Origin: a virus
Taxonomy: Duplodnaviria; Caudoviricetes
Virus record (IMG/VR): IMGVR_UViG_3300035501_000922
Length of the DNA stretch: 64,000 nt
Direction: 5' to 3' (one strand)
In this document: positions 14,789 through 44,078 of the stretch, piece after piece
Position numbering within the stretch: position 1 is the stretch's first letter
Layout of the letters: every line of letters starts with the position of its first letter
Notes under the pieces: model-generated
The model's database searches: none
Told to the model about the DNA's origin: nothing
What the model saw: only the letters and a program-made list of their open reading frames with translations
Program-made: the position numbers and the translations under genes

Positions 14789-14799
14789 AATTTACCCAC

Positions 14800-14831
14800 T
14801 TTCTCTGTTTTAACGTCTTTACAGCTGACTT
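14800..14831 (-). repeat. GTCAGCTG leader repeat, copy 1 (variant)
   Basis: AAGTCAGCTGTAAAGACGTTAAAACAGAGAA immediately upstream of the start of 13838-14788. Confidence 0.85.
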
Positions 14832-14909
14832 GATTAAAAAATAAAGACTGACGTAATGTTTCTCGCCAGCCTCTATTTTTGTTTTTCTTTATATGTATTA
14901 AATTAGAAA

Positions 14910-23622: not shown

Positions 23623-23717
23623 TCATATCACCCTCTTATAAAAATTAAAGTAATGTAATTTATAGTATAAGAATAAAAAATAAAGGACTGACAAGTAAAT
23701 CGTCAGTCCTCATGAAA

Positions 23718-24272
23718 TTACAATCTAATTATTTTTGTATTCTCATCAAATGCATTCTTATCAACAATCGTATTTTTAGGTATTATAACACTTTCCAAAG
23801 ATATACAATTATGAAATGCACCGTTATAAATATGTGATATAGTATTTGGTATTGTGATGTTCTTTAAAGATTTACAAGCATAGAATGCCCAATAATCAAT
23901 AACTACTACTCCCTTAGGTATTACAACGTTATCGAGTGAAGTACAGCACCAAAATGTTTCTTTATTAATGTGTGTTATTCCCTCAGGAAGTGTAATTGAA
24001 GTGAGGGACCTACATTGTGCAAACACTCCCTCACCGATATGTGTAGTACCTTTATTCATTGTAACGGTAGTTAATTCTTCACAAAATTCAAATGTATAAT
24101 CTTCAATTTTTGATACACTTCCGGGAATTGTAACTGTAGTAATCGAATTACAATAACTGAATGCCTCTTTATCAATTAATGTTATACCTTCAGGTACAAT
24201 AACATCTCTAATGTCTTTATCAAGACACTCAGTAAGAATTTTAATTTCCTTAACTTTAAATATTTCTTCCAT
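23718..24272 (-). CDS. BspA-type leucine-rich repeat protein (LRR-1)
   Basis: Repeats of IPxxVxxIxxxAFxxCxSLxxI; N-cap ECLDK; C-cap AFDENTKIIRL. Confidence 0.9.
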   Translation of the reverse strand: MEEIFKVKEIKILTECLDKDIRDVIVPEGITLIDKEAFSYCNSITTVTIPGSVSKIEDYTFEFCEELTTVTMNKGTTHIGEGVFAQCRSLTSITLPEGITHINKETFWCCTSLDNVVIPKGVVVIDYWAFYACKSLKNITIPNTISHIYNGAFHNCISLESVIIPKNTIVDKNAFDENTKIIRL

Positions 24273-24297
24273 GATATATTCCTTTCCCAGAGTTTGA

Positions 24298-24849
24298 TTA
24301 TACTCTGATTAATTTTGTATGCTTATCAAACGCCTCATTGTTAATATCTGTTATACCTGAAGGTATTACTGCAGATTCAAGCGATTCACATTTACCAAAT
24401 GCACGATATCCAATATGAACCACGCTATTTGGAATTACTACAGACTTAAGTGAACTGCAGCCACCAAATGCCCATGGTCCAATATAGTTCACGCTATCTG
24501 GTATTATAATAGACTCAAGCGAGGTACAGTTTTTAAATGTAGCGTGCCGTATAACTGTTACTTTATTCGAAATTGTAGCAGACCTGAGTCTGCTACAATC
24601 AGAAAACACCCATGAACTAATACTCATTACACTATCAGGAATCACAATGGATTCAAGTGATATGCAGTTTCTAAATGCACTCATCCCAATATCTCTTACA
24701 CTGTTTGGAATTGTAACAGATTTGAGGAATGCACAACTGCCGAATGCCCATTGCCCGATACTTGTTACTCCATCCGGAATAACTACATTCTCAATGTTAG
24801 TATCCCTACATTCCAAGAGAATAGTTTCAATTTTTAAAGCTTCACTCAT
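24298..24849 (-). CDS. BspA-type LRR protein (LRR-2)
   Basis: Same repeat consensus; C-cap AFDKHTKLIRV. Confidence 0.9.
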   Translation of the reverse strand: MSEALKIETILLECRDTNIENVVIPDGVTSIGQWAFGSCAFLKSVTIPNSVRDIGMSAFRNCISLESIVIPDSVMSISSWVFSDCSRLRSATISNKVTVIRHATFKNCTSLESIIIPDSVNYIGPWAFGGCSSLKSVVIPNSVVHIGYRAFGKCESLESAVIPSGITDINNEAFDKHTKLIRV

Positions 24850-24871
24850 AATATGCTCCTTTTTTTAAATT

Positions 24872-25633
24872 TCAAGTTCTGATTATTTTGATGGTGTCAT
24901 CAAATGCTGTATCATCAATCTCTTTCACCGAAGAGGGGATTGTAATAGACTCGAGCGATGGACAATTGCGGAAGGCATCTATATCAATCTTAGTCACACC
25001 ATTCTGAAGTGTAACTGAATTAAGTGATGAACACTGTTCAAATGCCCAACCGGGAATAGTTTCTACAGACCGTGGTATAGTAATACTGATAAGGGATGTA
25101 CATTTACTAAATGCAAAATCACCAATACATATTAAGCTATCAGGTAGCTCAATACTCTTAAGAGAACTACATTCGGTAAATGCACTCGCAGATATCTCCT
25201 TTACTTTATTAGACATTTTAACATCTAATAATGATTCACAACTATAAAATGCGCCCCTCTGAATCTGTACTACACTATCAGGCATTGTAACTGATAGTAA
25301 AGATGTACAATGGTCAAATGCAAAGTCATCAATACGGATTAGACCATCAGGTATTTCAACCTTTTTAAGTGATTTACATCCAGAAAATGCACTTGCACAA
25401 ATGTTTGTTATACCTATAGGTAATATAATAGACTCAAGAGACATACAATTACGAAATGCATTGACTCCTATGAATTTTACACTATTAGGTATTGTGATAG
25501 ACTTAACGTAATAACAATCTTCGAATGCCCCAGAACCAATAACTCCTATGCCTTCTGGAATAGTTACTTCTGTAACTTTACTATCAAGGCATTTAATAAG
25601 AACATTGTTTCCAATCATTAAAGTATTATTCAT
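24872..25633 (-). CDS. BspA-type LRR protein (LRR-3)
   Basis: Same repeat consensus; C-cap AFDDTIKIIRT. Confidence 0.9.
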   Translation of the reverse strand: MNNTLMIGNNVLIKCLDSKVTEVTIPEGIGVIGSGAFEDCYYVKSITIPNSVKFIGVNAFRNCMSLESIILPIGITNICASAFSGCKSLKKVEIPDGLIRIDDFAFDHCTSLLSVTMPDSVVQIQRGAFYSCESLLDVKMSNKVKEISASAFTECSSLKSIELPDSLICIGDFAFSKCTSLISITIPRSVETIPGWAFEQCSSLNSVTLQNGVTKIDIDAFRNCPSLESITIPSSVKEIDDTAFDDTIKIIRT

Positions 25634-25639
25634 AATATA

Positions 25640-25676
25640 CTCCTTCTCTGTTTTAAAGTCTTTAATCAGCTGACTT
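25640..25676 (-). repeat. GTCAGCTG leader repeat, copy 2
   Basis: AAGTCAGCTGATTAAAGACTTTAAAACAGAGAAGGAG before LRR-3. Confidence 0.9.
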
Positions 25677-25754
25677 AGTTAATGTTTTACGCATAAATAA
25701 TGTATAAATATTTATGTATTGTAAAACCGCTTAAAAACAATGTTTTAAGGTGAA

Positions 25755-26180
25755 TTGGAAAGGAATGATAGTATGATTACACATATGACTATAGATGTGG
25801 ATTTAAGTAAGAAAGTTTTAGGTATTGTAACACAGAATACTCCTCCCGTTTCAATCGGAGAATCAGTACCTGTTTTTATACCGATGATAATGTGTAACGT
25901 TGAAAATGGTTCTGAAGAACCTAAAACTTCATATATTAACACATATGGTAGTACTATTTTTAAAAATGATAGTAATTGTAAACCTAAGGCATCATCCACA
26001 TTAAAACAACAAAATTATATTTTAGCAAAAAAAGAAGATAATACTAATCTTTCTAGACTACTAGATAAAGATGATGATATAGATGGATATGTGTTACCAA
26101 AAGGAAGCAAAGTAGAAATTAGCTTTGTGCATGGTAAATTATCTGCTGTTACATTTAATACTAACTATTTATTTGATTAA
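25755..26180 (+). CDS. hypothetical protein, probably virion/baseplate
   Basis: AACA-N6-TA promoter at 25736; co-transcribed with the gp53-like gene. Confidence 0.55.
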   Translation: MERNDSMITHMTIDVDLSKKVLGIVTQNTPPVSIGESVPVFIPMIMCNVENGSEEPKTSYINTYGSTIFKNDSNCKPKASSTLKQQNYILAKKEDNTNLSRLLDKDDDIDGYVLPKGSKVEISFVHGKLSAVTFNTNYLFD

Positions 26181-26193
26181 GGTGGTGATATTA

Positions 26194-26589
26194 ATGTCTA
26201 TTCCAGCTACAATGACAGCACAAATATCAGAAGCAAAGAAATTAGAAATATCATACAGAGTATTACACCCATCTGCTATACTAAAAGATGAATATAGCTC
26301 TCGTAATATAGAAATTCCATTTTCTTCTTTAACTAATAAATACAGAGATTTTTTAAATAAAATAGTAAAAACTATTGAATTGGATGATAAACTAATTGCA
26401 CGTTATAGATACAGACCAAAAATGGTTTCTTATGATTTATATGAAACAACTGAATTATGGAATGATATATTAATTCTTAATCATTGTTTTTCAACATATG
26501 AATTTCAGCCTAAAAAAATATCCGTTTATGACCCATCTAGTTTAAAAGAATATATAAATGAAATTTTGATTCTTGAGGGATTAATATAA
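26194..26589 (+). CDS. baseplate wedge protein, T4 gp53-like
   Basis: YRYRPKMVSYDLYETTELWNDILILN resembles the gp53/LysM-like RPd..a..lYg...lwW.il..N motif. Confidence 0.6.
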   Translation: MSIPATMTAQISEAKKLEISYRVLHPSAILKDEYSSRNIEIPFSSLTNKYRDFLNKIVKTIELDDKLIARYRYRPKMVSYDLYETTELWNDILILNHCFSTYEFQPKKISVYDPSSLKEYINEILILEGLI

Positions 26590-26805
26590 ATAAAATTTTA
26601 TTATAAAAACATTTTAGTAATATATGTGGGTAAGGGGGAACCACAAGAGTTAAATTGGATAATGTTGGGGACATAGAAAAAATACAAAATAAATTAGATA
26701 AATAAAAGTAAATAAAAAGAATTATATGATGAAAATAATATATATAATAGAAGAACAATATAGTAATTCTAAATAATATATCATTCATGCTTTTTCTTGT
26801 CATTT

Positions 26806-26848
26806 AAATGATAGAGATAACTTTATAAAGTTATCTCTATCATTTTTA
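26806..26848. terminator. intrinsic terminator (near-perfect palindrome)
   Basis: aaatgatagagataacttt-at-aaagttatctctatcattt followed by a T run. Confidence 0.75.
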
Positions 26849-26871
26849 TCCGTAAATCCAGATTTTTGATT

Positions 26872-26881
26872 TATACATTAT
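26872..26881 (+). promoter_or_regulatory. TATAYATTAT phage promoter (representative of 18 copies; probably early class)
   Basis: Sense-oriented upstream of genes. Minus strand: 3438, 4310, 6543, 8199, 9102, 13750, 15564, 18369, 22406, 25697, 33218. Plus strand: 26872, 38977, 40238, 40799, 48732, 50623, 58372. Confidence 0.85.
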
Positions 26882-26904
26882 TTATGTGTTAGCAATAACA
26901 AATA

Positions 26905-26941
26905 AAGTCAGCTGGTTAAAGACTTTAAAACAGAGAAGGAG
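26905..26941 (+). repeat. GTCAGCTG leader repeat, copy 3
   Basis: AAGTCAGCTGGTTAAAGACTTTAAAACAGAGAAGGAG before LRR-4. Confidence 0.9.
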
Positions 26942-26947
26942 TATATT

Positions 26948-27379
26948 ATGAAATACAACACACTGAAAATTGAAAACGGCATTCTCATTGAATGTCTCGA
27001 CAAGCACATCGAAGAGGTGCTTATTCCCGAGGGTGTAACTACCATTTGGATAGATGCATTCAAAGATTGTAAGTTCCTCAGAAGTGTAGTGCTGCCTGAG
27101 GGGACAGTCATCATTGATGACGGGGCATTCACGGATTGTGTTATGCTTGAGAATGTTGTCATTCCCGAGAGCGTATCTGTCATTGGGGAAGACGCATTCC
27201 GTGGATGCCAATCTCTCAAAGAAATCTCCGTGCCCAAAACAGTAACAAGAATTCGTAACGGGGCATTCTATGGATGTTCCGGACTTGAAAAAATTACGGT
27301 TGATTTCGAAAGAACACACATAGGGGGAGATGCATTCTTCGGGTGCAGATCCCTCAAATCTATCGTAAAACCCGAATAA
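26948..27379 (+). CDS. BspA-type LRR protein (LRR-4)
   Basis: N-cap LKIENGILIECLDK and LRR repeats; lacks the usual C-cap. Confidence 0.9.
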   Translation: MKYNTLKIENGILIECLDKHIEEVLIPEGVTTIWIDAFKDCKFLRSVVLPEGTVIIDDGAFTDCVMLENVVIPESVSVIGEDAFRGCQSLKEISVPKTVTRIRNGAFYGCSGLEKITVDFERTHIGGDAFFGCRSLKSIVKPE

Positions 27380-27470
27380 CATTGGGTCAATCGATAAAGA
27401 ATCTAAATATAAGGGCTGGCGGTTATTATGTCAGCCCTTTATTTTTTATTTTAAGAAAGGATATCTAACT

Positions 27471-28163
27471 ATGAGTGAAATTCTAAAAATTAAAGATGGC
27501 GTTCTCATTGAGTGGCTTGACAGGACTAATGAAGAAGTAATCATTCCTGCAGGTGTGACAAAAATCGATGGATGTGCATTCGCCGGTTGCAGTTCGCTTA
27601 AATCTATTACGATACCCTCGACTGTAATAGATATTGGTAAGTATGCATTCTCTGTCTGTTCTCGTCTCGAATCGGTCACGATTCTTGGAGGTGTGACAAA
27701 AATCGATGGATGTGCATTCTCTAGTTGCCACTCACTCAAAGATATTGAATTACCCAAAAGCATAAGAACGATTGCTAAAATGGCATTCTATCAGTGTGAC
27801 TCGCTTTCAGAGATCACTATACCGGCAAGCGTGACAGATATAGGCTCTTATGCATTTGCTCATTGCTCTAAACTTAAATCTGTTACAATATGTGGCGGAG
27901 TATCAAAAATCTGTATAAACACATTTCATAAATGTTTCTCACTCAAAAAGGTCATAATACCGGAAACAGTGACAACTATTGAAATGGATGCATTTTCTGG
28001 ATGTGAATCGCTTGAGTCTATTGCATTACCTTCAAGTGTGACAGATATTCAGTATCATGCATTTTCTGGATGCCAGAATCTTAAAACTGTCATAATACCT
28101 AAAAACGTAACAGGCATTGATGACGAAGCATTCGATACTGGCGTGGAGATAATCAGAGTGTAG
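27471..28163 (+). CDS. BspA-type LRR protein (LRR-5)
   Basis: LRR repeats; C-cap AFDTGVEIIRV. Confidence 0.9.
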   Translation: MSEILKIKDGVLIEWLDRTNEEVIIPAGVTKIDGCAFAGCSSLKSITIPSTVIDIGKYAFSVCSRLESVTILGGVTKIDGCAFSSCHSLKDIELPKSIRTIAKMAFYQCDSLSEITIPASVTDIGSYAFAHCSKLKSVTICGGVSKICINTFHKCFSLKKVIIPETVTTIEMDAFSGCESLESIALPSSVTDIQYHAFSGCQNLKTVIIPKNVTGIDDEAFDTGVEIIRV

Positions 28164-28234
28164 CTGTATAAGGGCTGACGGTTCATTTTGTCAGCCATTA
28201 TTTTATTTTTATTTAAAGAAAGGAAGTTTTAATC

Positions 28235-29293
28235 ATGATAACAATTAAAGAAAAAATTTACGAGGCAGCATCTTACCATCACCAGTACTACTTGGCGGGA
28301 CTGCACATAACACATGATGACGCAGATGGCGTTGCATGTGGTGTAGTATCGAAGTTTATCAAAAACCTCGATACTGATGTCATTAACTGCAGTATCGCTG
28401 ATGTGAATCAGACTATAAGTCAGATGCTCGATAGCGAACTCAGTTTAGTGTCTTATGACGCTATATTGATTACGGACATCGTAATCAGCGACAACAACGC
28501 CGAAAGACTAAACGCCTTTTGTGAAGAGAGGGGCATTGCTCTGGAGGTTTATGACCATCACGAGACGAATCATCTTGGTGAGCTCTATGAGTGGGCTCAC
28601 ATAAAGAGTACAGACGATGAAGGTATTCCTATGTCAGCTGCAAAATATCTCTGTACAGAGATGAAAGACGTCATCAATGAGAAGGTCTACCCTCATCTCA
28701 GCGTAATGATGAACGACGTAAGTCGTTACGATACGGGGGAGTGGACCAGACACCCAAAAGCGCATCCCGACGAAGATCAGTACCATATACTGAATCTGAT
28801 AAGAGGACCACAAAATTTATATGATATGCTTGTGAGTGCATTGAATACTTACAAGCATATTGAGAACACCAATGAAGCCAGCAACCTTATACGTAAAGAG
28901 TATGCTCCTTTCGCCGGCATGGTTGCAGGGTTTAAAGAGAAGAAGGACCGAGTACTTGAGCACGTGCTCGGTCCTGATAATATAACTATATTTACGGGAG
29001 GCATCAATTCGTTTACCCATAAATATGCGCTCGTCATCGTTTCAGATGACTTTGCGCATTATGAAATGCGCAAAGTCATTCAAGAGATGCCTGATATAGA
29101 CGTTGTCGTTGGCATCTATCCAAAGAGTCGAAAGCTTTCATTCAGGACTAACCATGACGACGTCGATGTGTCGGAGCTGGCTAAAAGTTTCGGTGGCGGC
29201 GGACACCGTAACATAGCCGGAGCTACACTTGACAAGGAAAACTTTATGCGAATCCTTAAAGTGTACTACGGTACTGACGTGGAGGGAATATGA
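28235..29293 (+). CDS. DHH/DHHA1 phosphoesterase, second paralog
   Basis: HITHDDADG, ITD, YDHH, LSFR and GGGHRNIAG motifs. Confidence 0.9.
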   Translation: MITIKEKIYEAASYHHQYYLAGLHITHDDADGVACGVVSKFIKNLDTDVINCSIADVNQTISQMLDSELSLVSYDAILITDIVISDNNAERLNAFCEERGIALEVYDHHETNHLGELYEWAHIKSTDDEGIPMSAAKYLCTEMKDVINEKVYPHLSVMMNDVSRYDTGEWTRHPKAHPDEDQYHILNLIRGPQNLYDMLVSALNTYKHIENTNEASNLIRKEYAPFAGMVAGFKEKKDRVLEHVLGPDNITIFTGGINSFTHKYALVIVSDDFAHYEMRKVIQEMPDIDVVVGIYPKSRKLSFRTNHDDVDVSELAKSFGGGGHRNIAGATLDKENFMRILKVYYGTDVEGI

Positions 29294-29497
29294 TAAATTG
29301 CAAATTAAACGTCAAGCGTGCCGAATTTCATTTATCCCAAAAAGCCTTGTCAGATATGACAGGAATAAGGCTTCAGACGATTTCGGACATGGAGACTGGC
29401 AAGACAAAAGCTTACTCGGCTGAGAATCTCAGCAAGCTTTGTCAAGTATTTATGTGCCAAATAATATGTTCCTGATGAAAATAACAGTGACAAGTAG
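29290..29497 (+). pseudogene. XRE/Cro-type HTH regulator, apparently frameshifted near the C-terminus
   Basis: HTH LSQKALSDMTGIRLQTISDMETGK; the frame stops at 29475 while a typical YVPDE tail continues in another frame to a TAG at 29497. Confidence 0.55.
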
Positions 29498-29554
29498 TGA
29501 CTAAAAAAATAAGGCTAACGATTAATTTCGTTAGCCTTATTATTTTTTTTTTGT

Positions 29555-32500
29555 TTAAATGCTGTTTAAGAAGAACAACAGCTCATCGCTGATCTTATCT
29601 TCGGAATAAAGTATTTCTTGACCCAGTAATTCAGGATTCTCATAAGTCACATACGTAAATCTCGTATTTATAAGTGTACTTAATAACGACAGAATGTAGT
29701 CCGGTTTAATCTGCTGTAACAAATTGTATTTATTAGTAATAAGATTTTGATAAAGATATGACTCTTCAATCTTAGAAATAAACTTGTTGTTACGAATTAT
29801 TCTTGTATTTACTCTATCTTCCAAGTTTCCTGTTAAAATATACGGCAATGCTGCTTGATGAACCTCACCGTTTTCATCTTTCTCATATCCCAGTTCGATA
29901 AGTAATTTCTTCTTAAGAAGTAATGCCAGTATAATATAATCTCTTCTAGTAAGTAAGTTTAAATCTCTATAAGACCCAAAATACTTTGTATAGTATGAGT
30001 ATATCAACTGAATTTGTATTTTTGATGGTGTAAGATGCTCTCTGTAATAATCAACCTCTTCTTCAGACAACGGTACATCAATGATCTTTCGGATCCTTTC
30101 AATTGTCTTTTGAATATTGATATCTGCAAACGTGGTAGCACCTTCATCTAACTTAGTTAGATTCATTGCCATTTTATCAATACCTGATAATCCATCACTA
30201 TTTTTTGTATTTGTAACTTCTGTTATATTTTTCTGGTACTGTTCTTTCAGGAAGTAATTAAGTTGAAATTTTATACATTTACTACCTCATGTTTCCATGC
30301 AGGATTAGACTATATCTTCATCTCTATATTCTATTACCAAATATAAAGAGCCACCCATTTCGGAATTAAAATCCTACTCTACTCAGTTACTCACTTAGAT
30401 ATTTCTTCTAAGCTACCTTTTCGATAGTCGTTGAACGTTCTTCAATAAAGAAGCTTCGCTGCTGATTGTCTCTATTCATTAGATTATTACACTTTGGTAC
30501 TAATGACCTAACAAGAAGTTCCCAGCAATTAGAGTGGTTTGTCCAGTGGTTTGCACCACTTTGCGACTATTAAATTTAATCGTTTTGTTAACCTTATATA
30601 TCTTGTCTTTCGACAAAGAAGTAGACTATATCTTCATCATATATTCTTTTACCAAATATATAATGCCTCCCATTTCGGATTTACTTAAATCCTACTCTAC
30701 TCGGTTACTCACTTAAGTATTTCTCTTAAGATACCCTTTCGATAGTCGTTGAACGTTCTTATATATTAAATTTAAATTATTTTAGTAGATTTTATTAGGT
30801 GGGGATTAAAAATTTTTATCATATTATTACTTCCTTTCATGTTTTTTAAATTCATAGTTACATGCAATAGTTTTCCACGATTTACCCGCATAGATTAATC
30901 CTATAGATTCGCTTGAAACACCTGTCTTTTCAGATATCTCAGCATATGTCTTATTGCCGGCTTGAAGCATCTCACAAACTAAATGAATTTGTTCCTTGGT
31001 ATACTTTATTTTGCATTTTCGTGCACTGACACTATATCTATCAATATCGTAATTTTTACTGATGTTATTCCATATTATATGATTACGAATTTGTTTTACT
31101 ACAGTGTATGAAACGTTAGTTAAATTTGAAATTTCTCTCATTGTTTTCAAATTTTCTTCAAGATATTTACATACCTTTTGAATTTGTTCATTCGTATACT
31201 CAGAATTTGGATGGTCTTCTCCGTCTTTTGCAGAACTTAGTCCAGTTTTCCACGCATGATGAATATTTTCTTTAGCTGTATTCCATTCTAAATTTGAAAC
31301 GCAGTTGTTATCAATATTCCCATCCTTATGGTTAACTTGTTCTTTATTTTCAGGATTTGGAATAAATGCCGATGCAACTAATCTATGGACTGCACAATAA
31401 TGGGGTTTACCATCTATATAGATAATAACATGATGGTACCCATCTTTGTCTAACCAATGCATAAGAATCTTTTTTGTTTGCTTCCTTATGCTTATTACTT
31501 CGCCATTTATTGTAACCATATATTTTGTTTTTATCCCGTTTAAATAAATCCACCTAATAAAATTATCATCTGTATAATCAATACCTAAAGTATCGATTAA
31601 AAATTGATTAAGTTGTTTTTTCTTACTCATAATTTATAAATATATAAGCTTCGCTGCGGATTGTCTCTATTCTTAACATTGTTACTATACCTTTGGAATT
31701 ACCCATTGCCATTATTATATTACTATAATAATTTAGTAGTTAAGACCTAACGAGAAGTTCCCCGCAATTAAAGAGGTTTTAATTGAGCTATAACTAACCC
31801 AATGATGTTCTCCTTGTACTTATGAAGTTTCGGATCCCAATGCTCGTTGAATTTATATTTAACTATATTTTCACTAATAAGAACAGTTTTTGTGAAGTGA
31901 TTAATTACAGTGTATACATCTGTACCAAAAATCTCCCTTTGTTCAAAGATAGGGGCATTATTACTATTTGATTCTAAAACCTTGGCTTTGCATAATTTTC
32001 ATATAAGTTTGTTATCACTTATACAGTTTTGTTATAAACTTCTTCATGTTTCCATGAATGATAAGACTATATCTTCATCTTTATTTCTGTTACCAAAATA
32101 TAGATGCCTACCATTTCCACTCTACTTAGAGTGTACTCTACTCACTTCCAGTTACCGTATTTCTCAAATAACCGTGTTTTCGATAGTCGTTGAACGTTCT
32201 TCCATTAGGAAGCTTCGCTGCTGATTGTCTCTATTCATTAGATTATTACACTTTGGTACTAATGACCTAACGAGAGTTCCCAGCAATTAGATAGGTTGCA
32301 ATAATACATCGCTGTATTACGACGCCATTAATTAACGTAGCAGTAAAGTTTGTTGTACATATTAATTTCTTGTAATGCATAATACGTACCAGATTCAGTA
32401 TAATAGTATGTCAGCCTTCTATCTGAACTTTTTACAGGAGTTAATTCTTTATTTTTAACGCCTTCATCAATAAATGATTGGGGCACATTATTATCAAGGA

Positions 32501-33170
32501 TATTACCGTTTTCATCTTTGAGTTCGTACGTTGTTCCATAACCAAAAATCTTAAAAAGATCCTGATAGAATCTGAAGATAATATCTGTATCTTTACCAGC
32601 TTTAATAACATTTAAAGCTAGATAATGAAATAATACAGGAGACATAATTTTCATACCGAAAGATATTCTTAAAAGAATCTTAATATGCTGATTGGTGAAT
32701 TCAAGACTCTCCAAGTGTTTCTTTTCGTTTTTCATATATTTTTTCTTCTCTTCGCTGTCTCCCTCTATGTCATCAAGATAATTATCTTCGACCATACGAA
32801 CTATCTTATCAACCATAGTTGGTGTAAAAATGACCTCATAGATAAAATCTATGAAAGCATTCATGTTTTCTTCGGTAAATCTTTTCTCCTTGTCAAGAGA
32901 AAATTTCAACTTCAAATAAGCTGTTGCAAGCTCATTATCAGTATCATAAAGATTCATAAAGAAGTTAGTGTACTTGGTAATAATACCTAACTGATTCTCA
33001 TATGAACCCTTGTTTATAATAAACTTATTATAAACTCTCAGATTTGAATAACCAAATATCTTATCGAAATGACAAACAAAGAGCTTGCCATCAGGTTCGA
33101 CAAATACCTGATTTTTCTTTGGTTTCCAAGTGTTAATCTTGGATGTTTTACGTTGTTTTTCTTCCGCCAT
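29555..33170 (-). CDS. conserved core protein, probable sigma-like promoter-specificity subunit of the nvRNAP (AR9 gp226-like); 4 exons (about 587 aa)
   Basis: Exons 33170-32335, 31990-31797, 30591-30579 and 30275-29555 join in frame (YCYV|KAKV...NIIG|FNKTI|IKFQL). The function is inferred only from synteny two genes from GroEL. Confidence 0.6.
30276..30578 (-). mobile_element. group I intron (sigma-like gene intron 3, ORF-less)
   Basis: P1 CGAU/GUCG; full core; terminal G at 30276. Confidence 0.85.
30592..31796 (-). mobile_element. group I intron (sigma-like gene intron 2) carrying an HNH ORF
   Basis: P1 AUUGGGU/GCUCAAU; Q at about 31650-31665, R and S at about 30620-30755; terminal G at 30592. 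Confidence 0.85.
30827..31630 (-). CDS. intron-encoded HNH homing endonuclease
   Basis: VHRLVASAFIPNPENKEQVNHKDGNIDNNCVSNLEW followed by two HTH-like modules. Confidence 0.9.
   Translation of the reverse strand: MSKKKQLNQFLIDTLGIDYTDDNFIRWIYLNGIKTKYMVTINGEVISIRKQTKKILMHWLDKDGYHHVIIYIDGKPHYCAVHRLVASAFIPNPENKEQVNHKDGNIDNNCVSNLEWNTAKENIHHAWKTGLSSAKDGEDHPNSEYTNEQIQKVCKYLEENLKTMREISNLTNVSYTVVKQIRNHIIWNNISKNYDIDRYSVSARKCKIKYTKEQIHLVCEMLQAGNKTYAEISEKTGVSSESIGLIYAGKSWKTIACNYEFKKHERK
31991..32334 (-). mobile_element. group I intron (sigma-like gene intron 1, ORF-less)
   Basis: P1 ACGU/GCGU; full core; terminal G at 31991; GT|C restores Val. Confidence 0.85.
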
Positions 33171-33250
33171 GATGTTTACCCCTCCTGATTTATTATGAAA
33201 AGTTGATGTACGAAGATATAATATATAAGCAAAAGATCAATTTAATAAAA

Positions 33251-34057: not shown

Positions 34058-34078
34058 GATAAATCAGACTCCTTTCAA

Positions 34079-36118: not shown

Positions 36119-36172
36119 AAATAAATCTCCCTTCAAAAAATGTTAGAAAACTGTTGTGAGCAATATGCTATT

Positions 36173-36883: not shown

Positions 36884-36947
36884 AAATATTTCTCCTTTTA
36901 TAAATATAAAACAGCGAATTAGATTTCTCTAATTCGCTGTTTAACCA

Positions 36948-37649
36948 TTATGACATTGGTAAGAAATCACTCATGTCTCCGCTATAAGTATTAGTCGGGG
37001 CAGAGTAGTTATTATTACCAGAGCCATATGATGTATTCTGGTTATTATTCCTATATAATGCTTTATTAGCATTGGAATAATTAATTGAATGTGCAGTCAT
37101 AGGTACAAGGGACTGACAACCTTCAATTTTTTTCATGAAATTGTACAGGTCAGCTTCAACAGGAACTTCAGTTCCAGCACCTGTAATATAGTTATACCCA
37201 GTCATAAAGCTCTTCTTATTAAACTTATGTCTGAGAACATTTTCTTCATTAGTGACACCATCTTCATTTAAAGCCGTTGCAATTTCGAGATAAGCATCTT
37301 TTCCATCATAATAAATAGAAAGAGCTTTACGATTCTCATTATTTCCGATAGAAATTGTAACCTTTGCTTCAGTTGAATTTTCGATGGCAGGTTTAATTTC
37401 CTTATTAAAACCTTCAAACAGTGCAATTGCATTTTCTTCTCGTATTGATGTATTAATCTGCTGTGAAATTTCAGTTGCATATTGTGTTACACCGGTAGAA
37501 TCCTTGCCAACTGCAGGCTGTAGTTTAATTGATAAATTCCTATTCCAACCACCAACACTTAAAAGTGATGTATCGGAATACGATGTGTAAAATGAAGTAT
37601 TAATATTAACCCCATTTCCATTGTTATTCTGTCTTCTCGCGAACATCAT
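36948..37649 (-). CDS. hypothetical protein, possibly ssDNA-binding
   Basis: Beta-rich body, N/S/Y-rich linker and an acidic-hydrophobic tip DMSDFLPMS reminiscent of SSB tails (inference). Confidence 0.45.
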   Translation of the reverse strand: MMFARRQNNNGNGVNINTSFYTSYSDTSLLSVGGWNRNLSIKLQPAVGKDSTGVTQYATEISQQINTSIREENAIALFEGFNKEIKPAIENSTEAKVTISIGNNENRKALSIYYDGKDAYLEIATALNEDGVTNEENVLRHKFNKKSFMTGYNYITGAGTEVPVEADLYNFMKKIEGCQSLVPMTAHSINYSNANKALYRNNNQNTSYGSGNNNYSAPTNTYSGDMSDFLPMS

Positions 37650-37696
37650 AGTCAAAAGACTCCTTTCAAAATATAATTGTTTTTTATTACTAAAGA

Positions 37697-38482
37697 TTAT
37701 TCATCTGTAGTTTCAATATTGTTTTCCTCATTATTCTTTTTCCTTTTGGGATAATTCTTTAATATTTTATTTCGTATCTTTGATTCTAATTCAACAAAGA
37801 AGTTTTCATCAATCATTTTAATATAGTCTTGAATAAAATTACCTGTTATTAAGAATTCATCAAATTTCTCTTCTACAAATTCTGTTTCAAGACAATTACT
37901 ATCTGATTTGATTAATTCAAAGAAATCATCAACTGTTAATTCTTGAGATAGAATATAACGAATTACTGAACCTAGATTAGAAAGAATGATTACATCATTT
38001 TCATCATTAATTTCAACTTTGAAATTAAGTGTAGTAACATCCCTTTTCTTAGGTGCAATCTCTTCGTCAACAAGTTCTTCTTTATGCTCATTAATATAAT
38101 TTATTATTAATGTGACAAAGTTCTTTTTTATATTCTTAATGAAGAATCTATATGTTAAAAGAATTAGTTCATGTTGGTCATCATCTTCTGCATCTTCAAT
38201 ATCAGGAAAACCTATAGAGAGATAGGTATCAAAAATATTAATAATAAACTTAATAAATTGGTCATGCATCTGCTCTAAGTTTTCTTGTTCTTCTTCATAT
38301 AAATTCTCTTTACTAAAATCATATTTGGTAATAAATGTTTGTATATAATCTTTTTTTCGATATTCTAGTGGATCTTGAAATTGTGATTCAATTGCTTTTT
38401 CTAATAAATTTAACGGAACCTCTGATAAAAAAAGTTCGTCCTCAATATCAGTAGGCTCGTATTCAAATTCTGTATTCCACAC
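37697..38482 (-). CDS. hypothetical acidic protein
   Basis: 261-aa ORF, GTG start, AAGGAG RBS. Confidence 0.75.
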   Translation of the reverse strand: MWNTEFEYEPTDIEDELFLSEVPLNLLEKAIESQFQDPLEYRKKDYIQTFITKYDFSKENLYEEEQENLEQMHDQFIKFIINIFDTYLSIGFPDIEDAEDDDQHELILLTYRFFIKNIKKNFVTLIINYINEHKEELVDEEIAPKKRDVTTLNFKVEINDENDVIILSNLGSVIRYILSQELTVDDFFELIKSDSNCLETEFVEEKFDEFLITGNFIQDYIKMIDENFFVELESKIRNKILKNYPKRKKNNEENNIETTDE

Positions 38483-38516
38483 AACGTAAAACTCCTTTCA
38501 GATTAAAGTTTCCTCT

Positions 38517-38906
38517 TTATAAAAATTTCGGCTCATTTAAAGCTTTAACTTTAAGTTCACATTGATATTGAAAATCACATTCATTATCGCAACCACATGA
38601 ACTGGTTTCTGTTTTTTCAGGATTTTGTGGACATGTGTTATATAAACCACAGTTAGTATGAGGACAGTAAGACTCACGTATACATTTCTGTGATCCTGCA
38701 TGAAGTTTATGGTTTATATAATCTAGACTTGTAGTCTGGGTAAACTGTGGATATATAAATGTTACTGTTCTGCCACAATTACAACAACGTAATGTATGAC
38801 CTACTACGTTATTAAGATTATCAATAATATCAGTGTAAAGTTTATTTTTACAACCACAGTAATGACATTTCTCAAGCATCGTTTCCGAACGTGCAAATTC
38901 TCTCAT
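38517..38906 (-). CDS. Cys-rich zinc-binding protein
   Basis: CHYCGC, CCNCG and further Cys clusters; AAGGAG RBS. Confidence 0.7.
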   Translation of the reverse strand: MREFARSETMLEKCHYCGCKNKLYTDIIDNLNNVVGHTLRCCNCGRTVTFIYPQFTQTTSLDYINHKLHAGSQKCIRESYCPHTNCGLYNTCPQNPEKTETSSCGCDNECDFQYQCELKVKALNEPKFL

Positions 38907-39037
38907 TTAAAAGCACTCCTTTAAATAAAAATTTTTATTTAATTGTCGTTCTATCCGTAAAATGAGTCTTTTCATTTATATATTATTTTCGTGTAATTGA
39001 ATAAGAAATAGAGAAATTCGATTATACATAAATAAAA

Positions 39038-39092
39038 TAGGTCGCCTGAACCTAGTCAAAAGAAAGGCATTTAAAATACTGGGAGGTATTTT
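39038..39092 (+). promoter_or_regulatory. TAGGTCGCC pseudoknot-type 5' leader, copy 2
   Basis: TAGGTCGCCTGAACCTAGTCAAAAGAAAGGCATTTAAAATACTGGGAGGTATT. Confidence 0.75.
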
Positions 39093-39093
39093 T

Positions 39094-39495
39094 ATGGCAA
39101 AATTTATTTGGAACACCTGGAACACCCGAAGAAAATTCAAGTCTGCGGTCAAAAGTGCACGAAAGACCGCACAAAAAAAGAATAAGCATGACGAGGCTAC
39201 AAGATGGCTTGTATTATTTAAACAAGCTGTGGCTGTCGAAGACAAATTTGATGCTGACGATGCATTGGAAAAAGTGTTCGACGATATACTCAAAACACAC
39301 TTTATTTGGTATGAGCTGTATGGATATGAGTTGAGAGAAATGTTTGAATTAATGGATTCATTTTATGAAGTTCTGTTAGAAGCCCACAATGAAGAGGGTT
39401 TCCTCAGTGACAGTGAAATGGAAGACGTACGACAGCTATGGATGGATGACGGAGGACTAAGAATAGCAGCATCCATATTATGCTGTAAGGCATAA
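39094..39495 (+). CDS. hypothetical protein
   Basis: GGAGG RBS; basic N-terminus and acidic C-terminus. Confidence 0.75.
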   Translation: MAKFIWNTWNTRRKFKSAVKSARKTAQKKNKHDEATRWLVLFKQAVAVEDKFDADDALEKVFDDILKTHFIWYELYGYELREMFELMDSFYEVLLEAHNEEGFLSDSEMEDVRQLWMDDGGLRIAASILCCKA

Positions 39496-39514
39496 TATAA
39501 TGAAAGGAGTAATT

Positions 39515-40189
39515 ATGAAAATCGAAAATAACATTATTATTGACTGTCCCGACAAAACCATCACTGAGGCGGTCATTCCTGACACTATAAGAGCTATCAG
39601 ACCGTATGCATTTTGCAAGTGCGTGTCACTTAAGAAAATCGCGTTTTCAGATAGCGTAAAATTTATTAAAAGTGCCGCATTTATGGGTTGCACTTCACTG
39701 GAGAGTGTGGTGCTACCTAAAAATCTAAAAAGGATTGAATCATACACATTTCAGTACTGCTCATCGCTTGAGAAAGTTATAATATCAAATAGCGTAACAA
39801 GCATTGGTGATTCGGCATTCAATAACTGCTCCTCACTTGAGGAGATCATAATCCCGAATAGTGTAACAAGCATTGGGGAGTTTGCATTTTGCAAGTGTGG
39901 ATCACTTAAGGGAATCACGCTTTCAGATAGCCTTGCAGTAATCGGTGAACACACGTTCAGTGAATGTGTGTCTCTTAAGGGAATCACAATCCCTGATAGC
40001 GTCGAAGTAATAGGCTATGGCGCTTTTTACGAATGTTCATCACTGAAAAGTGTAATAATACCGAGCAGTGTAACAGTCATCAAAAGATTTGCGTTTCACA
40101 AATGCCCGATTGAAAGTGTCGTGGTTCCACGCGATACGATCATCGAATATGGTGCGTTTGATGAACGCACGAAAATAATCAGAGTATAA
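39515..40189 (+). CDS. BspA-type LRR protein (LRR-6)
   Basis: LRR repeats; C-cap AFDERTKIIRV; start placed by the AAGGAG RBS. Confidence 0.9.
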   Translation: MKIENNIIIDCPDKTITEAVIPDTIRAIRPYAFCKCVSLKKIAFSDSVKFIKSAAFMGCTSLESVVLPKNLKRIESYTFQYCSSLEKVIISNSVTSIGDSAFNNCSSLEEIIIPNSVTSIGEFAFCKCGSLKGITLSDSLAVIGEHTFSECVSLKGITIPDSVEVIGYGAFYECSSLKSVIIPSSVTVIKRFAFHKCPIESVVVPRDTIIEYGAFDERTKIIRV

Positions 40190-40304
40190 AAATTAAGGTC
40201 GGCGGTTCATCTGCCGACCTTATTTTTTTCATATATTTATACATTATTTTTTCATATCTCGATGACTACAAATTAAATAAACTAAATATGAAAGGAAGAT
40301 TAAT

Positions 40305-40736
40305 ATGAATGATATTCTAGAGATTAAGTCTGGGTTTCTCATTGCTTGTCATGATAAAGACATTAAGAGTATAGAAATACCCAGTACAGTAAAAGTAATT
40401 TGCAAAGGGGCATTTTTAAATTGTTCATCCCTCGAAAGTGTAACAATACCTCCCTCTGTAAATATTATTGGTGAGCTGGCGTTTTTATTTTGTACGTCCC
40501 TCTCAAGCATTGTAATACCTGGTTCAGTAAGAAGAATCAGTAACGGTGCATTTTCCAAATGTATATCCCTTAAATCTGTTGAAATCTGTAGTGGAGTAAC
40601 AAGTATCGGTATACGTGCATTTATTGGTTGTACATCATTATCATCAATTGTAATACCCGAAAGTGTTACAAGTATCGGCGAACACGCATTTGACAAGAAT
40701 ACTGTACAGTATAGATATTTTAGTACATTACGATAG
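40305..40736 (+). CDS. BspA-type LRR protein (LRR-7)
   Basis: LRR repeats; C-cap AFDKNT. Confidence 0.9.
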   Translation: MNDILEIKSGFLIACHDKDIKSIEIPSTVKVICKGAFLNCSSLESVTIPPSVNIIGELAFLFCTSLSSIVIPGSVRRISNGAFSKCISLKSVEICSGVTSIGIRAFIGCTSLSSIVIPESVTSIGEHAFDKNTVQYRYFSTLR

Positions 40737-40828
40737 ACAAAAAAGACTGTGATTTCGTATCACAGTCTTTTTTTATCCGTAAAATGGGTCTTTATATTTA
40801 TACATTATTTATGTGTAAAACAATAACT

Positions 40829-40863
40829 GAGTCAGCTGTAAAGACCTTAAAACAGAGAAGGAG
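40829..40863 (+). repeat. GTCAGCTG leader repeat, copy 4 (variant)
   Basis: GAGTCAGCTGTAAAGACCTTAAAACAGAGAAGGAG. Confidence 0.9.
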
Positions 40864-40869
40864 TATATT

Positions 40870-41397
40870 ATGAATACAACAGTAGAAAATATGAAAATTG
40901 AAGAAGGCGTTCTTGTTGAATGCCTTGATAAAACCGTTACAGAGGTTTCAATACCTGAAAATGTAAAGGAAATTGGTGCCAATGCATTTTATGGCTGTGA
41001 CAGGTTAAAAACTGTCATAATACCCGAGGGTATAACAGTAATTGGTAGAGGGGCATTCTCGCGTTGCAGTTCTCTCTCAGAGGTTTCAATTCCTAGTAGC
41101 GTTGAATATATTGGTGTAAGTGCATTCATGCGTTGTGGTAACTTAAAATCTATTACAATACCTAAAGGAGTAATAAGTATCGGACCTGCTGCATTCTTAC
41201 ATTGTGACTCCCTTTCAGAGGTTTTAATACCTGAGGGGGTTGAGTATATTGGAACTAATGCATTCTTAAGTTGTCCGAACCTCAAGACAGTAAGAATACC
41301 CAAGACGGTAACGAAACTTGGTATGGCTGTATTTAATAATGGTACCAAAATCATTTGTTGCCATGAGTTTGATAGCTTTGGCCATCCTAAGATATAA
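40870..41397 (+). CDS. BspA-type LRR protein (LRR-8)
   Basis: LRR repeats; tail GTKIICCHEFD. Confidence 0.9.
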   Translation: MNTTVENMKIEEGVLVECLDKTVTEVSIPENVKEIGANAFYGCDRLKTVIIPEGITVIGRGAFSRCSSLSEVSIPSSVEYIGVSAFMRCGNLKSITIPKGVISIGPAAFLHCDSLSEVLIPEGVEYIGTNAFLSCPNLKTVRIPKTVTKLGMAVFNNGTKIICCHEFDSFGHPKI

Positions 41398-41402
41398 TAA
41401 TT

Positions 41403-41439
41403 AAGTCAGCTGGTTAAAGACTTTAAAACAGAGAAGGAG
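41403..41439 (+). repeat. GTCAGCTG leader repeat, copy 5
   Basis: AAGTCAGCTGGTTAAAGACTTTAAAACAGAGAAGGAG. Confidence 0.9.
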
Positions 41440-41446
41440 TTACAAT

Positions 41447-42040
41447 ATGAGTGAAATTCTGTGCATTGAGAATGGTGTTCTCATCAAATGCCTAGACAAA
41501 ACCGTTACGGAAATAGTCATTCCTGAAGGGGTGACTAGAATTGGTATCGCGGCATTCGAGGACTGCGATAGGTTAACAAATGTCACAATGCCTAAGAGTA
41601 TGACAGTGATTGATGGATGGGCATTTAGGTATTGCAGTTCTCTCTCAGAGATTTCAATACCTAAAAAGGTGACAGAGATTCGTGATGCTGCCTTCTATGG
41701 CTGCGAATCTTTGACAAAGATATCAATACCTAAAGGGGTGGCAGTGATTTCTCGCAACACATTTTATGGGTGCATTAGGTTAAAAACTGTCGTAATACCT
41801 AAGAGTGTGAGATTAATTGGCGGAAGTGCATTCGAACATTGTAGTTCTCTTAGTTCCGTCAGAATACCTGAAGGGGTTGAGGGTATTGGGATTCGTGCAT
41901 TTTTAGATTGCCCAAATATCAAATCAATTAAAATACCTAATAGTGTAAAGACACTTGGAGGAGATGCATTTAATAGAGGCACGAAAGTCATTCGTGTGCA
42001 TGAATTTGATGGCATTGGATGGCAAAAAATGCTGGATTAA
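41447..42040 (+). CDS. BspA-type LRR protein (LRR-9)
   Basis: LRR repeats; tail GTKVIRVHEFD. Confidence 0.9.
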   Translation: MSEILCIENGVLIKCLDKTVTEIVIPEGVTRIGIAAFEDCDRLTNVTMPKSMTVIDGWAFRYCSSLSEISIPKKVTEIRDAAFYGCESLTKISIPKGVAVISRNTFYGCIRLKTVVIPKSVRLIGGSAFEHCSSLSSVRIPEGVEGIGIRAFLDCPNIKSIKIPNSVKTLGGDAFNRGTKVIRVHEFDGIGWQKMLD

Positions 42041-42052
42041 GATATAATAATC

Positions 42053-42091
42053 AAGTCAGCTGGTTAAAGACTTTAAAACAGAGAAATGGAG
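42053..42091 (+). repeat. GTCAGCTG leader repeat, copy 6
   Basis: AAGTCAGCTGGTTAAAGACTTTAAAACAGAGAAATGGAG. Confidence 0.9.
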
Positions 42092-42098
42092 TTTTATT

Positions 42099-42872
42099 AT
42101 GAATACATTAGAAATCTTGAAAATTGAAAACGGTGTTCTCACCAGATGCCTCGACAAAAACGTTACCGAAATCACAATACCCAAGGGGGTAACGGAAATC
42201 GGTACAAAAGCGTTCTATAACTGTGAACAGCTTGTATCAGTCGATATACCCGAAGGAGTGAAAAAGATCGGTTACAAAGCGTTTCGAAATTGCGATTCGC
42301 TAATAACGGTCGTATTACCCAAGGGGGTAACCGAGATAGGTAAAGATGCATTCATGGCTTGCACGAGCCTTGAATCTGTATCAATACCTGATACTGTTAC
42401 AAAAATCAACAGCTATGCTTTCTGCGCTTGTAAAGCGCTAAAGTCGATTAAAATCCCAAACGGGGTAAAAGAAATCGGCAATAAAGCATTCTGTGATTGC
42501 AATTCAATACTGTCGGTCGAAATACCCGACAGTGTGATTAAAATCGGAAACTATGCGTTCTGCTGGTGCTGTTCACTTGAAAAAGTGGACATTCCTAAAG
42601 GAATAACATCTATAAATTCCGGATTATTCGCAAAGTGTCACTCCCTTCAGTCTGTTACCATCCCCGAATGGATAAAAACGATTTCCATGGGTGCATTTTA
42701 CTATTGCACGTCGCTTACAGAAGTCAGAATTTCTGACGGTGTGAGAGGAATCGTCAGAAACGCTTTCATAGGTTGCGAGTCTCTAACGGAAGTCTCAATA
42801 CCTAAAAGTGTAACGAGACTTGATGAGTGGGCCTTCGACGAGGAGAAGGTCGTACTGCAAAGGGAAGTATGA
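42099..42872 (+). CDS. BspA-type LRR protein (LRR-10)
   Basis: N-cap LKIENGVLTRCLDK and LRR repeats. Confidence 0.9.
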   Translation: MNTLEILKIENGVLTRCLDKNVTEITIPKGVTEIGTKAFYNCEQLVSVDIPEGVKKIGYKAFRNCDSLITVVLPKGVTEIGKDAFMACTSLESVSIPDTVTKINSYAFCACKALKSIKIPNGVKEIGNKAFCDCNSILSVEIPDSVIKIGNYAFCWCCSLEKVDIPKGITSINSGLFAKCHSLQSVTIPEWIKTISMGAFYYCTSLTEVRISDGVRGIVRNAFIGCESLTEVSIPKSVTRLDEWAFDEEKVVLQREV

Positions 42873-42891
42873 AATCAGAGGAGTAATAATC

Positions 42892-42928
42892 AAGTCAGCT
42901 GGTTAAAGACTTTAAAACAGAGAAGGAG
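42892..42928 (+). repeat. GTCAGCTG leader repeat, copy 7
   Basis: AAGTCAGCTGGTTAAAGACTTTAAAACAGAGAAGGAG. Confidence 0.9.
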
Positions 42929-42933
42929 TTATT

Positions 42934-44031
42934 ATGAGCACGAATCTAAAAATCAAAACTATCCTCTATGATTGTCCTAATAAAAAAATAGAGGCAGTAA
43001 CCGTACCGGACGGAGTAACAATAATTGGGGATAAAGCATTCGATGAGTGCTATTATCTTGAGAATGTAAAAATTCCCGACAGTGTAAAATATATCAAGGA
43101 ATATGCATTCAGAGGTTGCTCTGCACTTAGGTCGGTAGGTCTATCCAAAAATATAGAAAAAATCTACCAAGGTGCATTCGAAAACTGTGCAAAGCTTGAA
43201 GGAATCACAATTCCCGACAGTGTAAAACATATCGGGTACTATGCATTCTCAGGCTGCTCTGCACTTAGGTCAGTGGAACTGCCTAAAAATCTAGAAGTAA
43301 TCAACCACAATGTATTTGAAGACTGTACAAATCTTCAAAGAATCACAATTCCCGATAGCGTTACAGAAATCGGTAATTATGCATTCGCAAATTGCGAATT
43401 AGCTTATGGTGTAAGAATTCCCGACAACGTATCATCGATTGGTAATTATTCATTCAGAGGGTGTATTTCACTTGATGATATAAAAATTCCCGACAGTGTA
43501 AAATATATCGGGTGGTCTGCATTCTCAGGTTGCTCTGCACTAAGGTCAGTAGAGCTGCCCAAAAATCTAAAAATAATCCATAGTGCGTTGTTTTGTCGTT
43601 GTACCGCACTTAGGGATATAGAAATTCCGAATAGTGTTAGAGAAATTGAGGATCATGCATTTAATCTCTGTGTTTCACTTGAAGGAATAACAATCCCGAA
43701 TAGTGTTAGGGAAATAGACGATGGTGCATTTTCTTTTTGTCGTTCGTTAAAAAATATTGTACTTCCGAACAGTATTACGGAAATTAAATATGTTACATTC
43801 TGTAGTTGTATATCGCTTGAAGAAATCACAATTCCGGATAGTGTTACGGAAATAGGCCAGGGGGCATTTGTTCATTGTACAGCCTTAAAGTCTGTTACAA
43901 TTCCGAGCAGTGTAACAGCTATAAAAAAGCGTGCGTTTGCAGAATGTGCAATTGAACGAGTGGAAGTTCCACTCAATACGGATGTTGCAGACGACGCATT
44001 CGATGCTGACGTGGAGATAATCAGAGTGTGA
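42934..44031 (+). CDS. BspA-type LRR protein (LRR-11, the longest)
   Basis: About 14 repeats; C-cap AFDADVEIIRV. Confidence 0.9.
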   Translation: MSTNLKIKTILYDCPNKKIEAVTVPDGVTIIGDKAFDECYYLENVKIPDSVKYIKEYAFRGCSALRSVGLSKNIEKIYQGAFENCAKLEGITIPDSVKHIGYYAFSGCSALRSVELPKNLEVINHNVFEDCTNLQRITIPDSVTEIGNYAFANCELAYGVRIPDNVSSIGNYSFRGCISLDDIKIPDSVKYIGWSAFSGCSALRSVELPKNLKIIHSALFCRCTALRDIEIPNSVREIEDHAFNLCVSLEGITIPNSVREIDDGAFSFCRSLKNIVLPNSITEIKYVTFCSCISLEEITIPDSVTEIGQGAFVHCTALKSVTIPSSVTAIKKRAFAECAIERVEVPLNTDVADDAFDADVEIIRV

Positions 44032-44037
44032 TAATCA

Positions 44038-44078
44038 AAGAAGACTGCGATATGAAAACGCAGTCTTCTTTTTTTTTT
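44038..44078. terminator. bidirectional intrinsic terminator
   Basis: aagaagactgcg/cgcagtcttctt stem plus a T run, between convergent genes. Confidence 0.8.

Follow-up and report, generated by a model that had tools for sequence, protein, structure and literature searches.

The 64,000-nucleotide (nt) stretch of viral DNA analyzed here, referred to as the window (IMG/VR virus record IMGVR_UViG_3300035501_000922; Duplodnaviria, Caudoviricetes), carries 11 genes, designated LRR01 to LRR11, whose products consist of BspA-type leucine-rich repeats (LRRs) of the Pfam family LRR_5 (PF13306). These are real phage genes. Several structures have been solved for the well-known LRR_5 domain, which is rare in phages. 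We consider it somewhat probable that the 11 proteins act in the infected cell at the start of infection as accessory binding proteins which serve host take-over or counter-defence in a broad sense. This intracellular role is suggested by their early-type promoters, the lack of an export signal and of a virion anchor, their position among replication genes, their organization in self-contained units, their lineage-specific copy number, and their protein-binding fold.

Gene content and relatives assign the window to an uncultured jumbo phage of the AR9/PBS1 type. Among its products are pieces of a split multisubunit RNA polymerase, a GroEL-like chaperonin, a family-B DNA polymerase (PolB), a Dda-like helicase, an NAD-dependent ligase, and DHH phosphoesterases, and matching metatranscriptome runs place the phage in animal guts. 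None of 50,697 GenBank phage records is close to it; LRR_5-like sequence occurs in 32 of these records, all of them from uncultured gut phages.

The 11 stand-alone open reading frames (ORFs) are 143–365 amino acids (aa) long and match PF13306 with E-values from 3e-29 to 1e-131 and scores of 102–433 bits (gathering cut-off 27.7). They form three clusters, as an initial annotation of this DNA had described. Using a profile built from the 11 proteins, we found neither a twelfth copy in the six frames of the window nor partial LRR cassettes. The repeat register is perfectly regular, with 90 units of 23 residues that follow the pattern LxxIxIPxxVxxIxxxAFxxCxx, and each protein has 5–15 units if the cap unit is included. 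A typical protein begins with an N-terminal cap (N-cap) of about 20 residues, continues with the 23-residue units, and mostly closes with a short C-terminal cap (C-cap). In line with the initial annotation, the N-cap (LKIENGVLIxCLDK-like) was seen in 11 of 11 proteins, with a mean pairwise identity of 42%, and the C-cap (AFDxxxxIIR[VLT]) is common to most: it forms the exact protein end in six, is followed by a 13-aa tail in LRR09, is degenerate in LRR07, LRR08, and LRR10, and is absent from LRR04. Pairwise identity among the proteins is 32–53%, and all 11 frames are intact. Their isoelectric points range from 4.75 to 8.6, and the idea that they are DNA mimics was rejected on this ground.

The AlphaFold2 model of LRR05 (230 aa) is a regular solenoid with a predicted local distance difference test score (pLDDT) of 96. 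In this model the N-cap is a beta hairpin, and thus a structural cap and not a tag, and the C-cap is the final strand. Homology to solved LRR_5 chains reaches E-values of 1e-50. The proposed lack of a signal peptide or extra domain also held: no other Pfam domain was found in the 11 proteins, and a Kyte–Doolittle hydropathy heuristic, used as export-signal test instead of SignalP, detected no hydrophobic N-terminal segment (maximal 12-residue mean ≤1.63 compared to 2.2–3.6 in secreted bacterial homologues).

In domain family, 23-residue unit, hairpin, C-cap, and variability profile, the window proteins equal the BspA/TpLRR-type LRR_5 proteins (4fs7, 4gt6, 4h09, TpLRR 6mlx, PcpA 4cp6). However, the latter are mostly exported or anchored multi-domain bacterial proteins, whereas the window proteins are stand-alone, signal-less, phage-encoded, placed behind early-type promoters, and present in 11 copies. 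A scan of genome contigs returned homologues of ≤46% identity from many phyla and revealed neither a donor nor a clue to the host. None of the ten LRR proteins looked up in a collection of 15 billion proteins was present. The PHROG matches are families of large proteins without assigned function, and PADLOC gave no match for the LRR genes and no link to defence.

Promoters, leader, and RNA-library sequences

The motif TATAYATTAT occurs 18 times in the window, compared to 2.4 expected occurrences, and is followed by a G six bases downstream in 16 cases. Five of the 18 motifs head LRR units and lie 67–117 nt upstream of the first gene; the -6N-G spacing is kept in four of them, with LRR07 having an A at +1. 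The units consist of LRR03-02-01, LRR04 (followed by LRR05 behind a hairpin), a 133-aa ORF with LRR06, LRR07 alone, and LRR08-11, and they are closed by hairpin terminators. No separate motif precedes LRR05, which lies downstream of the LRR04 terminator. The early promoter of phage AR9 is AAATATATATTAT-6N-G(+1), at which the injected virion RNA polymerase initiates transcription independently of new protein synthesis (PMC5312081). The window motif matches this consensus in sequence and in spacing to the +1 G, and the two phages are of the same kind. Thus, the initial assignment of the clusters to TATAYATTAT promoters is borne out for five units, and the promoter type is experimentally early in AR9 (PMC5312081). 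By homology to AR9, we infer that the LRR units are transcribed early.

We found no AR9-type late motif (AACA-N6-TA/G) upstream of the LRR genes, except for one chance fit inside the LRR10 leader. In AR9, 41 of 43 virion proteins are late, and the early genes mostly encode small proteins of unknown function that are thought to act on the host; an LRR family is not mentioned for this phage (PMC5312081). Two sigma-70-like matches (TATAAT) lie on the plus strand in the 3' ends of LRR08 (41369–41398, 11/12) and LRR09 (42019–42048, 10/12), before the next leaders, and may be due to chance (26 observed, 19.8 expected).

A conserved leader of 37–46 nt precedes six LRR genes and the non-LRR gene 13838–14788, giving seven matches where none was expected. 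Its copies are 83–98% identical, compared to about 60% for the coding DNA. The leader was absent from five complete relatives in a leader search, and its pattern returned three single matches in IMG/VR. It has no stable RNA fold (z-scores against shuffles from -0.4 to +1.1), and no Rfam family matches the leader or lies in the LRR clusters; a role as RNA structure is therefore unsupported. Its position before a non-LRR gene indicates a portable regulatory element and not just a duplication scar. The leader is probably a protein-recognized regulatory element or a translation-initiation element, and it offers a separate handle on gene regulation in AR9-like phages. The LRR genes also have strong ribosome-binding sites. 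The gene 13838–14788 lies on the minus strand and encodes a 316-aa protein with no match in Pfam, PHROG, or PADLOC.

RNA libraries contain LRR sequence. In four metatranscriptome runs of animal guts, drawn from four studies, there are contigs that are 100% identical to parts of LRR02, LRR04, LRR05, LRR06, LRR07, LRR09, and LRR11. The runs were found with cluster-3 sequence; even so, all four cover LRR04, and their LRR04 contigs start at 26900, 26901, 26904, and 26923, i.e., 12–35 nt after the predicted +1. For LRR02, an identical contig spans 24613–24824, and another differs at 24570 and 24607, resulting in S94P and one synonymous change; S94P restores the consensus proline at repeat position 7. 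The same runs hold contigs that join 30660 to 31659 and 31990 to 32335, exactly at group I introns. These joints argue that real phage RNA is present, although intron-less DNA variants are possible. Contig joints of low support were also seen between LRR genes (39873>43479 and 41264>40652).

Insertion of the clusters and variability of the repeats

Relatives of the phage were collected by PolB searches, which yielded 11 contigs from IMG/VR and 8 from JGI/ENA with PolB identities of 41–75%; an IMG/VR scan with the helicase protein alone gave no match. We compared eight complete (98–100%) genomes of about 250 kb and three partial ones. Among these, the closest relative, G001 (75% PolB identity), is the only one with LRR_5: three small, divergent LRR_5 ORFs are located elsewhere in its genome, and a protein of 583 aa combines LRR_5 with a fibre-like N-terminal part and a PKD-like segment. 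Eight complete relatives are free of LRR_5 genes.

Around each of the three clusters, the backbone shows synteny with the relatives, and the clusters themselves are insertions. The junction between PolB and the homologue of 38517–38906 measures 100–600 nt in L002, L013, L034, L035, L036, and L039. In L037 it contains two LRR_5 genes, which lie on the other strand and follow an early-type motif, and in the window the 133-aa ORF and six LRR genes, so that this junction holds 0, 2, or 6 LRR genes across phages. The junction between the helicase and the gene pair 25755/26125 is a 358-nt gap in G001 and contains an unrelated 220-aa gene in G003, in both cases with no LRR gene. In a different slot, L036 (71% PolB identity) has its own tandem array of four signal-less LRR_5 genes (1282–5656) encoding proteins of approximately 315–407 aa. 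Three of these carry a conserved helical C-terminal domain of about 130 aa without Pfam match, for which the model is of low confidence (pLDDT 30–69). The paralog tree is a star in which the L036 array alone is clearly monophyletic, and no duplication order can therefore be derived. A comparison of LRR complements among relatives, suggested with the initial annotation, thus gives 0, 2, 4, 6, and 11 genes, and these differences between close relatives represent a natural experiment. Together with the insertions, they show that the family is accessory, turns over fast, and underwent separate expansions in sister lineages.

The per-position entropy of the window repeats correlates closely with that of 138 unrelated LRR_5 homologues (Spearman rho 0.94). 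The constant scaffold with variable remaining positions is therefore a signature of the family. The most variable positions are 12, 15, 16, 19, 20, and 22 (3.6–3.9 bits), which are enriched in aromatic residues and, within the coil, fall on its second strand and third side; positions 2, 3, 5, and 8 of the concave strand reach 2.5–2.8 bits and form the less variable face. This assignment of faces is based on the repeat register and DSSP and not on coordinates. Between paralogs, the scaffold is 74% identical, and identity at hypervariable positions is 7.7% for units of the same index and 8.8% for units of different index, which indicates saturation. One related array, that of L036, permitted an estimate of the ratio of nonsynonymous to synonymous substitution rates (omega), with synonymous divergence near saturation: omega is 0.07–0.11 for the scaffold, 0.12–0.22 for concave positions, which are hence under purifying selection, and 0.7–1.0 for hypervariable positions. 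Internal repeats of LRR11 (D8 and D11) show growth by two-repeat (138-nt) modules that duplicate inside genes. We saw no sign of gene conversion or cassette exchange; exact DNA matches between the coding sequences of paralogs do not exceed 20 nt, compared to 11–15 nt after codon shuffling.

These data bear on two other explanations. According to the first, a captured LRR gene multiplied in a largely neutral or selfish manner, as moron-like units that duplicate together with leader and promoter and add little to the infection. This would account for the absence of the family from most relatives, the aberrant ends of two copies, the full randomization of the variable positions, and an omega near 0.7–1 at the hypervariable positions of L036, which is compatible with neutrality. 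However, all 11 frames stayed intact during divergence to the observed identities, the scaffold is strongly constrained both between paralogs and in L036, ribosome-binding sites are strong and the leader is nearly identical, the sequence occurs in RNA libraries, and LRR arrays expanded independently in related phages. We therefore regard neutral expansion as unlikely.

The second explanation is the one proposed in the initial annotation, i.e., a diversified repertoire designed like the variable lymphocyte receptors (VLRs) of lampreys, with constant caps and a variable concave face that neutralizes host defence proteins. Many paralogs with different surfaces, early-type promoters, accessory status, and the enrichment of aromatics at positions 12, 15, 16, and 19 would fit this design, and lamprey VLRs are likewise capped LRR solenoids with variable repeat number. 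However, VLRs arise by somatic assembly from flanking cassettes, are capped by LRRNT/LRRCT elements, and are hypervariable on the concave face, none of which is seen in the window proteins. The caps are generic LRR_5 caps rather than a novelty of the phage: many bacterial LRR_5 proteins, with or without a signal peptide and including secreted ones, have the N-terminal hairpin (xIxNGVLxKYxGxxxxVxIP) and end in AF[PD]xxxxII[RY]. The C-L-D-K variant of the N-cap is the only cap trait particular to the window family, and a search restricted to the N-cap found no close relatives of it among 5.8 billion protein clusters. With generic caps, a generic variability profile, no exchange tracts, a concave strand that is the less variable face, and no PADLOC or other link to defence, the VLR analogy and its predicted variable concave face are unsupported, and we consider such a repertoire very unlikely.

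Proposed role in the infected cell

We propose that the 11 genes represent a lineage-specific expansion of single-domain LRR_5 solenoid proteins, inserted, in the form of self-contained promoter–gene–terminator units, into three junctions within the replication and early-gene region. The injected virion RNA polymerase would transcribe them at the start of infection. As judged from the missing export signal, the proteins would stay in the host cytoplasm, where they would probably serve as protein-binding modules with individually different surfaces and sequester or block proteins of the host or of rival elements. Protein binding is a general activity of the LRR solenoid fold, and the presumed binding activity follows from this general property; the target class is a guess.

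Several observations weigh against this proposal. Its early timing depends on promoter similarity to a distant cultured phage, and the RNA libraries may contain DNA, their contigs being unable to show expression level or timing. Most relatives have no LRR gene at all, so the family is dispensable, and LRR04 and LRR07, which lack a normal C-cap, might be decaying. Since the variability profile is generic for LRR_5, it provides no independent sign of selection for new specificities. Finally, the fibre-like 583-aa protein of G001 with its PKD-like segment shows that LRR_5 can also serve outside the cell in this clade.

A rival explanation is that the proteins are virion-associated, being packaged and injected or decorating the particle as host-binding modules, a role of the kind found in other large phages that have LRR families. 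In the jumbo phage Goslar, gp161 joins an LRR domain, which is proposed to function in host recognition, to a virion-anchoring DUF7941 module (bioRxiv 10.64898/2026.04.21.720040). Besides this protein and that of G001, the LRR proteins that BFVD and PHROGs list for uncultured phages are mostly large, and genes with weak similarity to baseplate proteins (25755–26589) lie between clusters 1 and 2. Like Goslar, the window belongs to a jumbo phage with BspA-like LRR modules, but its LRR proteins have no anchor domain and stand behind early-type promoters only, with no late motif, whereas AR9 virion proteins are nearly all late (PMC5312081). Moreover, their N-terminus is a folded cap and not a cleavable tag, and the genes are located in the replication module. 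A virion role thus appears quite improbable. Equally doubtful is an action outside the cell after lysis, in which the proteins would bind bacterial surfaces or animal-host molecules like BspA-type adhesins or immune modulators and indirectly benefit the phage or the population of its host: BspA-type LRR_5 proteins are mostly bacterial surface proteins, the window proteins share caps and repeats with secreted bacterial homologues, and the phage lives in animal guts, but the promoters are early and not late, an export signal is missing, and a released factor would hardly be expected to come as eleven different paralogs.

Within the intracellular role that we favour, a specific anti-defence function is conceivable, if rather unlikely. 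A further, doubtful version is that large gut phages keep quickly changing sets of bare LRR solenoids as an early cytoplasmic tool kit of binders, with each paralog inhibiting or redirecting a different immune or housekeeping protein of the host via its non-concave faces. If true, bacterial viruses would have their own equivalent of the repeat-protein families known from giant viruses, and the proteins would make up a new class of factors for anti-defence or host take-over. The structural matches include LRR and FNIP proteins of Mimiviridae, and the giant-virus families (LRR, FNIP/F-box, ankyrin) similarly comprise many lineage-specific paralogs of a repeat scaffold. However, these belong to eukaryotic viruses and often have F-box or other adaptor domains, whereas the window proteins consist of LRR_5 alone; what connects the two is their design, not common descent. 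One Lachnospiraceae phage has a 598-aa LRR protein that is also encoded in the replication module. In the literature, we found no description of early, bare LRR_5 arrays in phages. If the LRR proteins bind host proteins, they would form a new and easily recognized class of phage host-interaction factors, and through their targets, hitherto unknown pathways of uncultured gut bacteria, defensive or essential, could come to light. For annotation it matters that bare LRR_5 solenoids, usually labelled as surface proteins, also exist as signal-less phage genes with early-type promoters.

Feature map and neighbouring genes

Table 1. LRR genes of the window and their associated promoter motifs, terminators, and leaders.
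Feature	Position	Strand	Description
Terminator after LRR01	23683–23711	-	hairpin and T-run
LRR01	23718–24272	-	184 aa, 7 units; C-cap ends the protein; PF13306 E 1e-47
LRR02	24298–24849	-	183 aa, 7 units, C-cap; PF13306 E 5e-57
LRR03	24872–25633	-	253 aa, 10 units, C-cap; heads unit LRR03-02-01; PF13306 E 1e-69
Promoter motif of LRR03-02-01	25697–25706	-	early-type, TATACATTAT-6N-G
Promoter motif of LRR04	26872–26881	+	early-type; predicted +1 G at 26888
Leader of LRR04	26905–26947	+	conserved, GTCAGCTG..AAAGACYTTAAAACAGAGAA plus Shine-Dalgarno
LRR04	26948–27379	+	143 aa, 5 units; ends mid-repeat without C-cap; PF13306 E 3e-29
Terminator between LRR04 and LRR05	27411–27439	+	hairpin
LRR05	27471–28163	+	230 aa, 9 units, both caps; PF13306 E 3e-72; terminator 28173–28196
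Promoter motif of 133-aa ORF and LRR06	38977–38986	+	early-type
133-aa ORF	39094–39495	+	4 nt ahead of LRR06; belongs to the inserted block; unmatched in Pfam, PHROG, and PADLOC; absent at the relatives' junction
LRR06	39500–40189	+	229 aa, 9 units, C-cap; PF13306 E 1e-66; terminator 40194–40222
Promoter motif of LRR07	40238–40247	+	early-type; +1 is A, not G
LRR07	40305–40736	+	143 aa, 5 units, divergent C-terminal end; PF13306 E 1e-33; hairpin and T-run ~40743–40776
Promoter motif of LRR08-09-10-11	40799–40808	+	early-type
LRR08	40870–41397	+	175 aa, 6 units, degenerate cap and HEFD tail; PF13306 E 8e-63
LRR09	41447–42040	+	197 aa, 7 units, cap and HEFD tail; PF13306 E 6e-55
LRR10	42099–42872	+	257 aa, 10 units, degenerate cap; PF13306 E 9e-74
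LRR11	42934–44031	+	365 aa, 15 units; PF13306 E 1e-131; hairpin and T-run ~44041–44077
Other leader copies	~40828–40869, ~41403–41446, ~42053–42098, ~42892–42933	+	
Other leader copies	25634–25676, ~14789–14835	-	

Two small conserved genes (25755–26589, plus strand) lie between the divergent LRR units. One of them weakly resembles the baseplate wedge protein gp53 of T4 (E 1e-3 in Pfam, 8e-11 in PHROG). The pair adjoins the helicase in all relatives, in differing orientations. The window also has two DHH/DHHA1 phosphoesterase paralogs, at 20905–21927 (minus strand) and 28235–29293 (plus strand). The latter is separated from the preceding LRR05 by a terminator and lacks a counterpart at this site in G001 and G003; it therefore seems to be part of the inserted block.

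Further neighbouring genes are interrupted. Three group I introns lie in the region 29555–33170 (minus strand), at 32042–32344, 30285–30588, and 30603–30664 plus upstream sequence, the last of which carries an HNH endonuclease ORF (30827–31630). They split a gene whose halves, 32328–33170 (matching an RNA-polymerase-like PHROG) and 29555–30172, are adjacent in relatives. The PolB gene (44077–47593, minus strand) is split as well: in the relative L001, the homologue of 47174–47593 and PolB form a single ORF of 762 aa. Between the PolB parts of the window lie a 286-aa HNH-like ORF (45957–46817) and a group-I-intron-like match at 46857–47221 (41.9 bits, Rfam cut-off 50).

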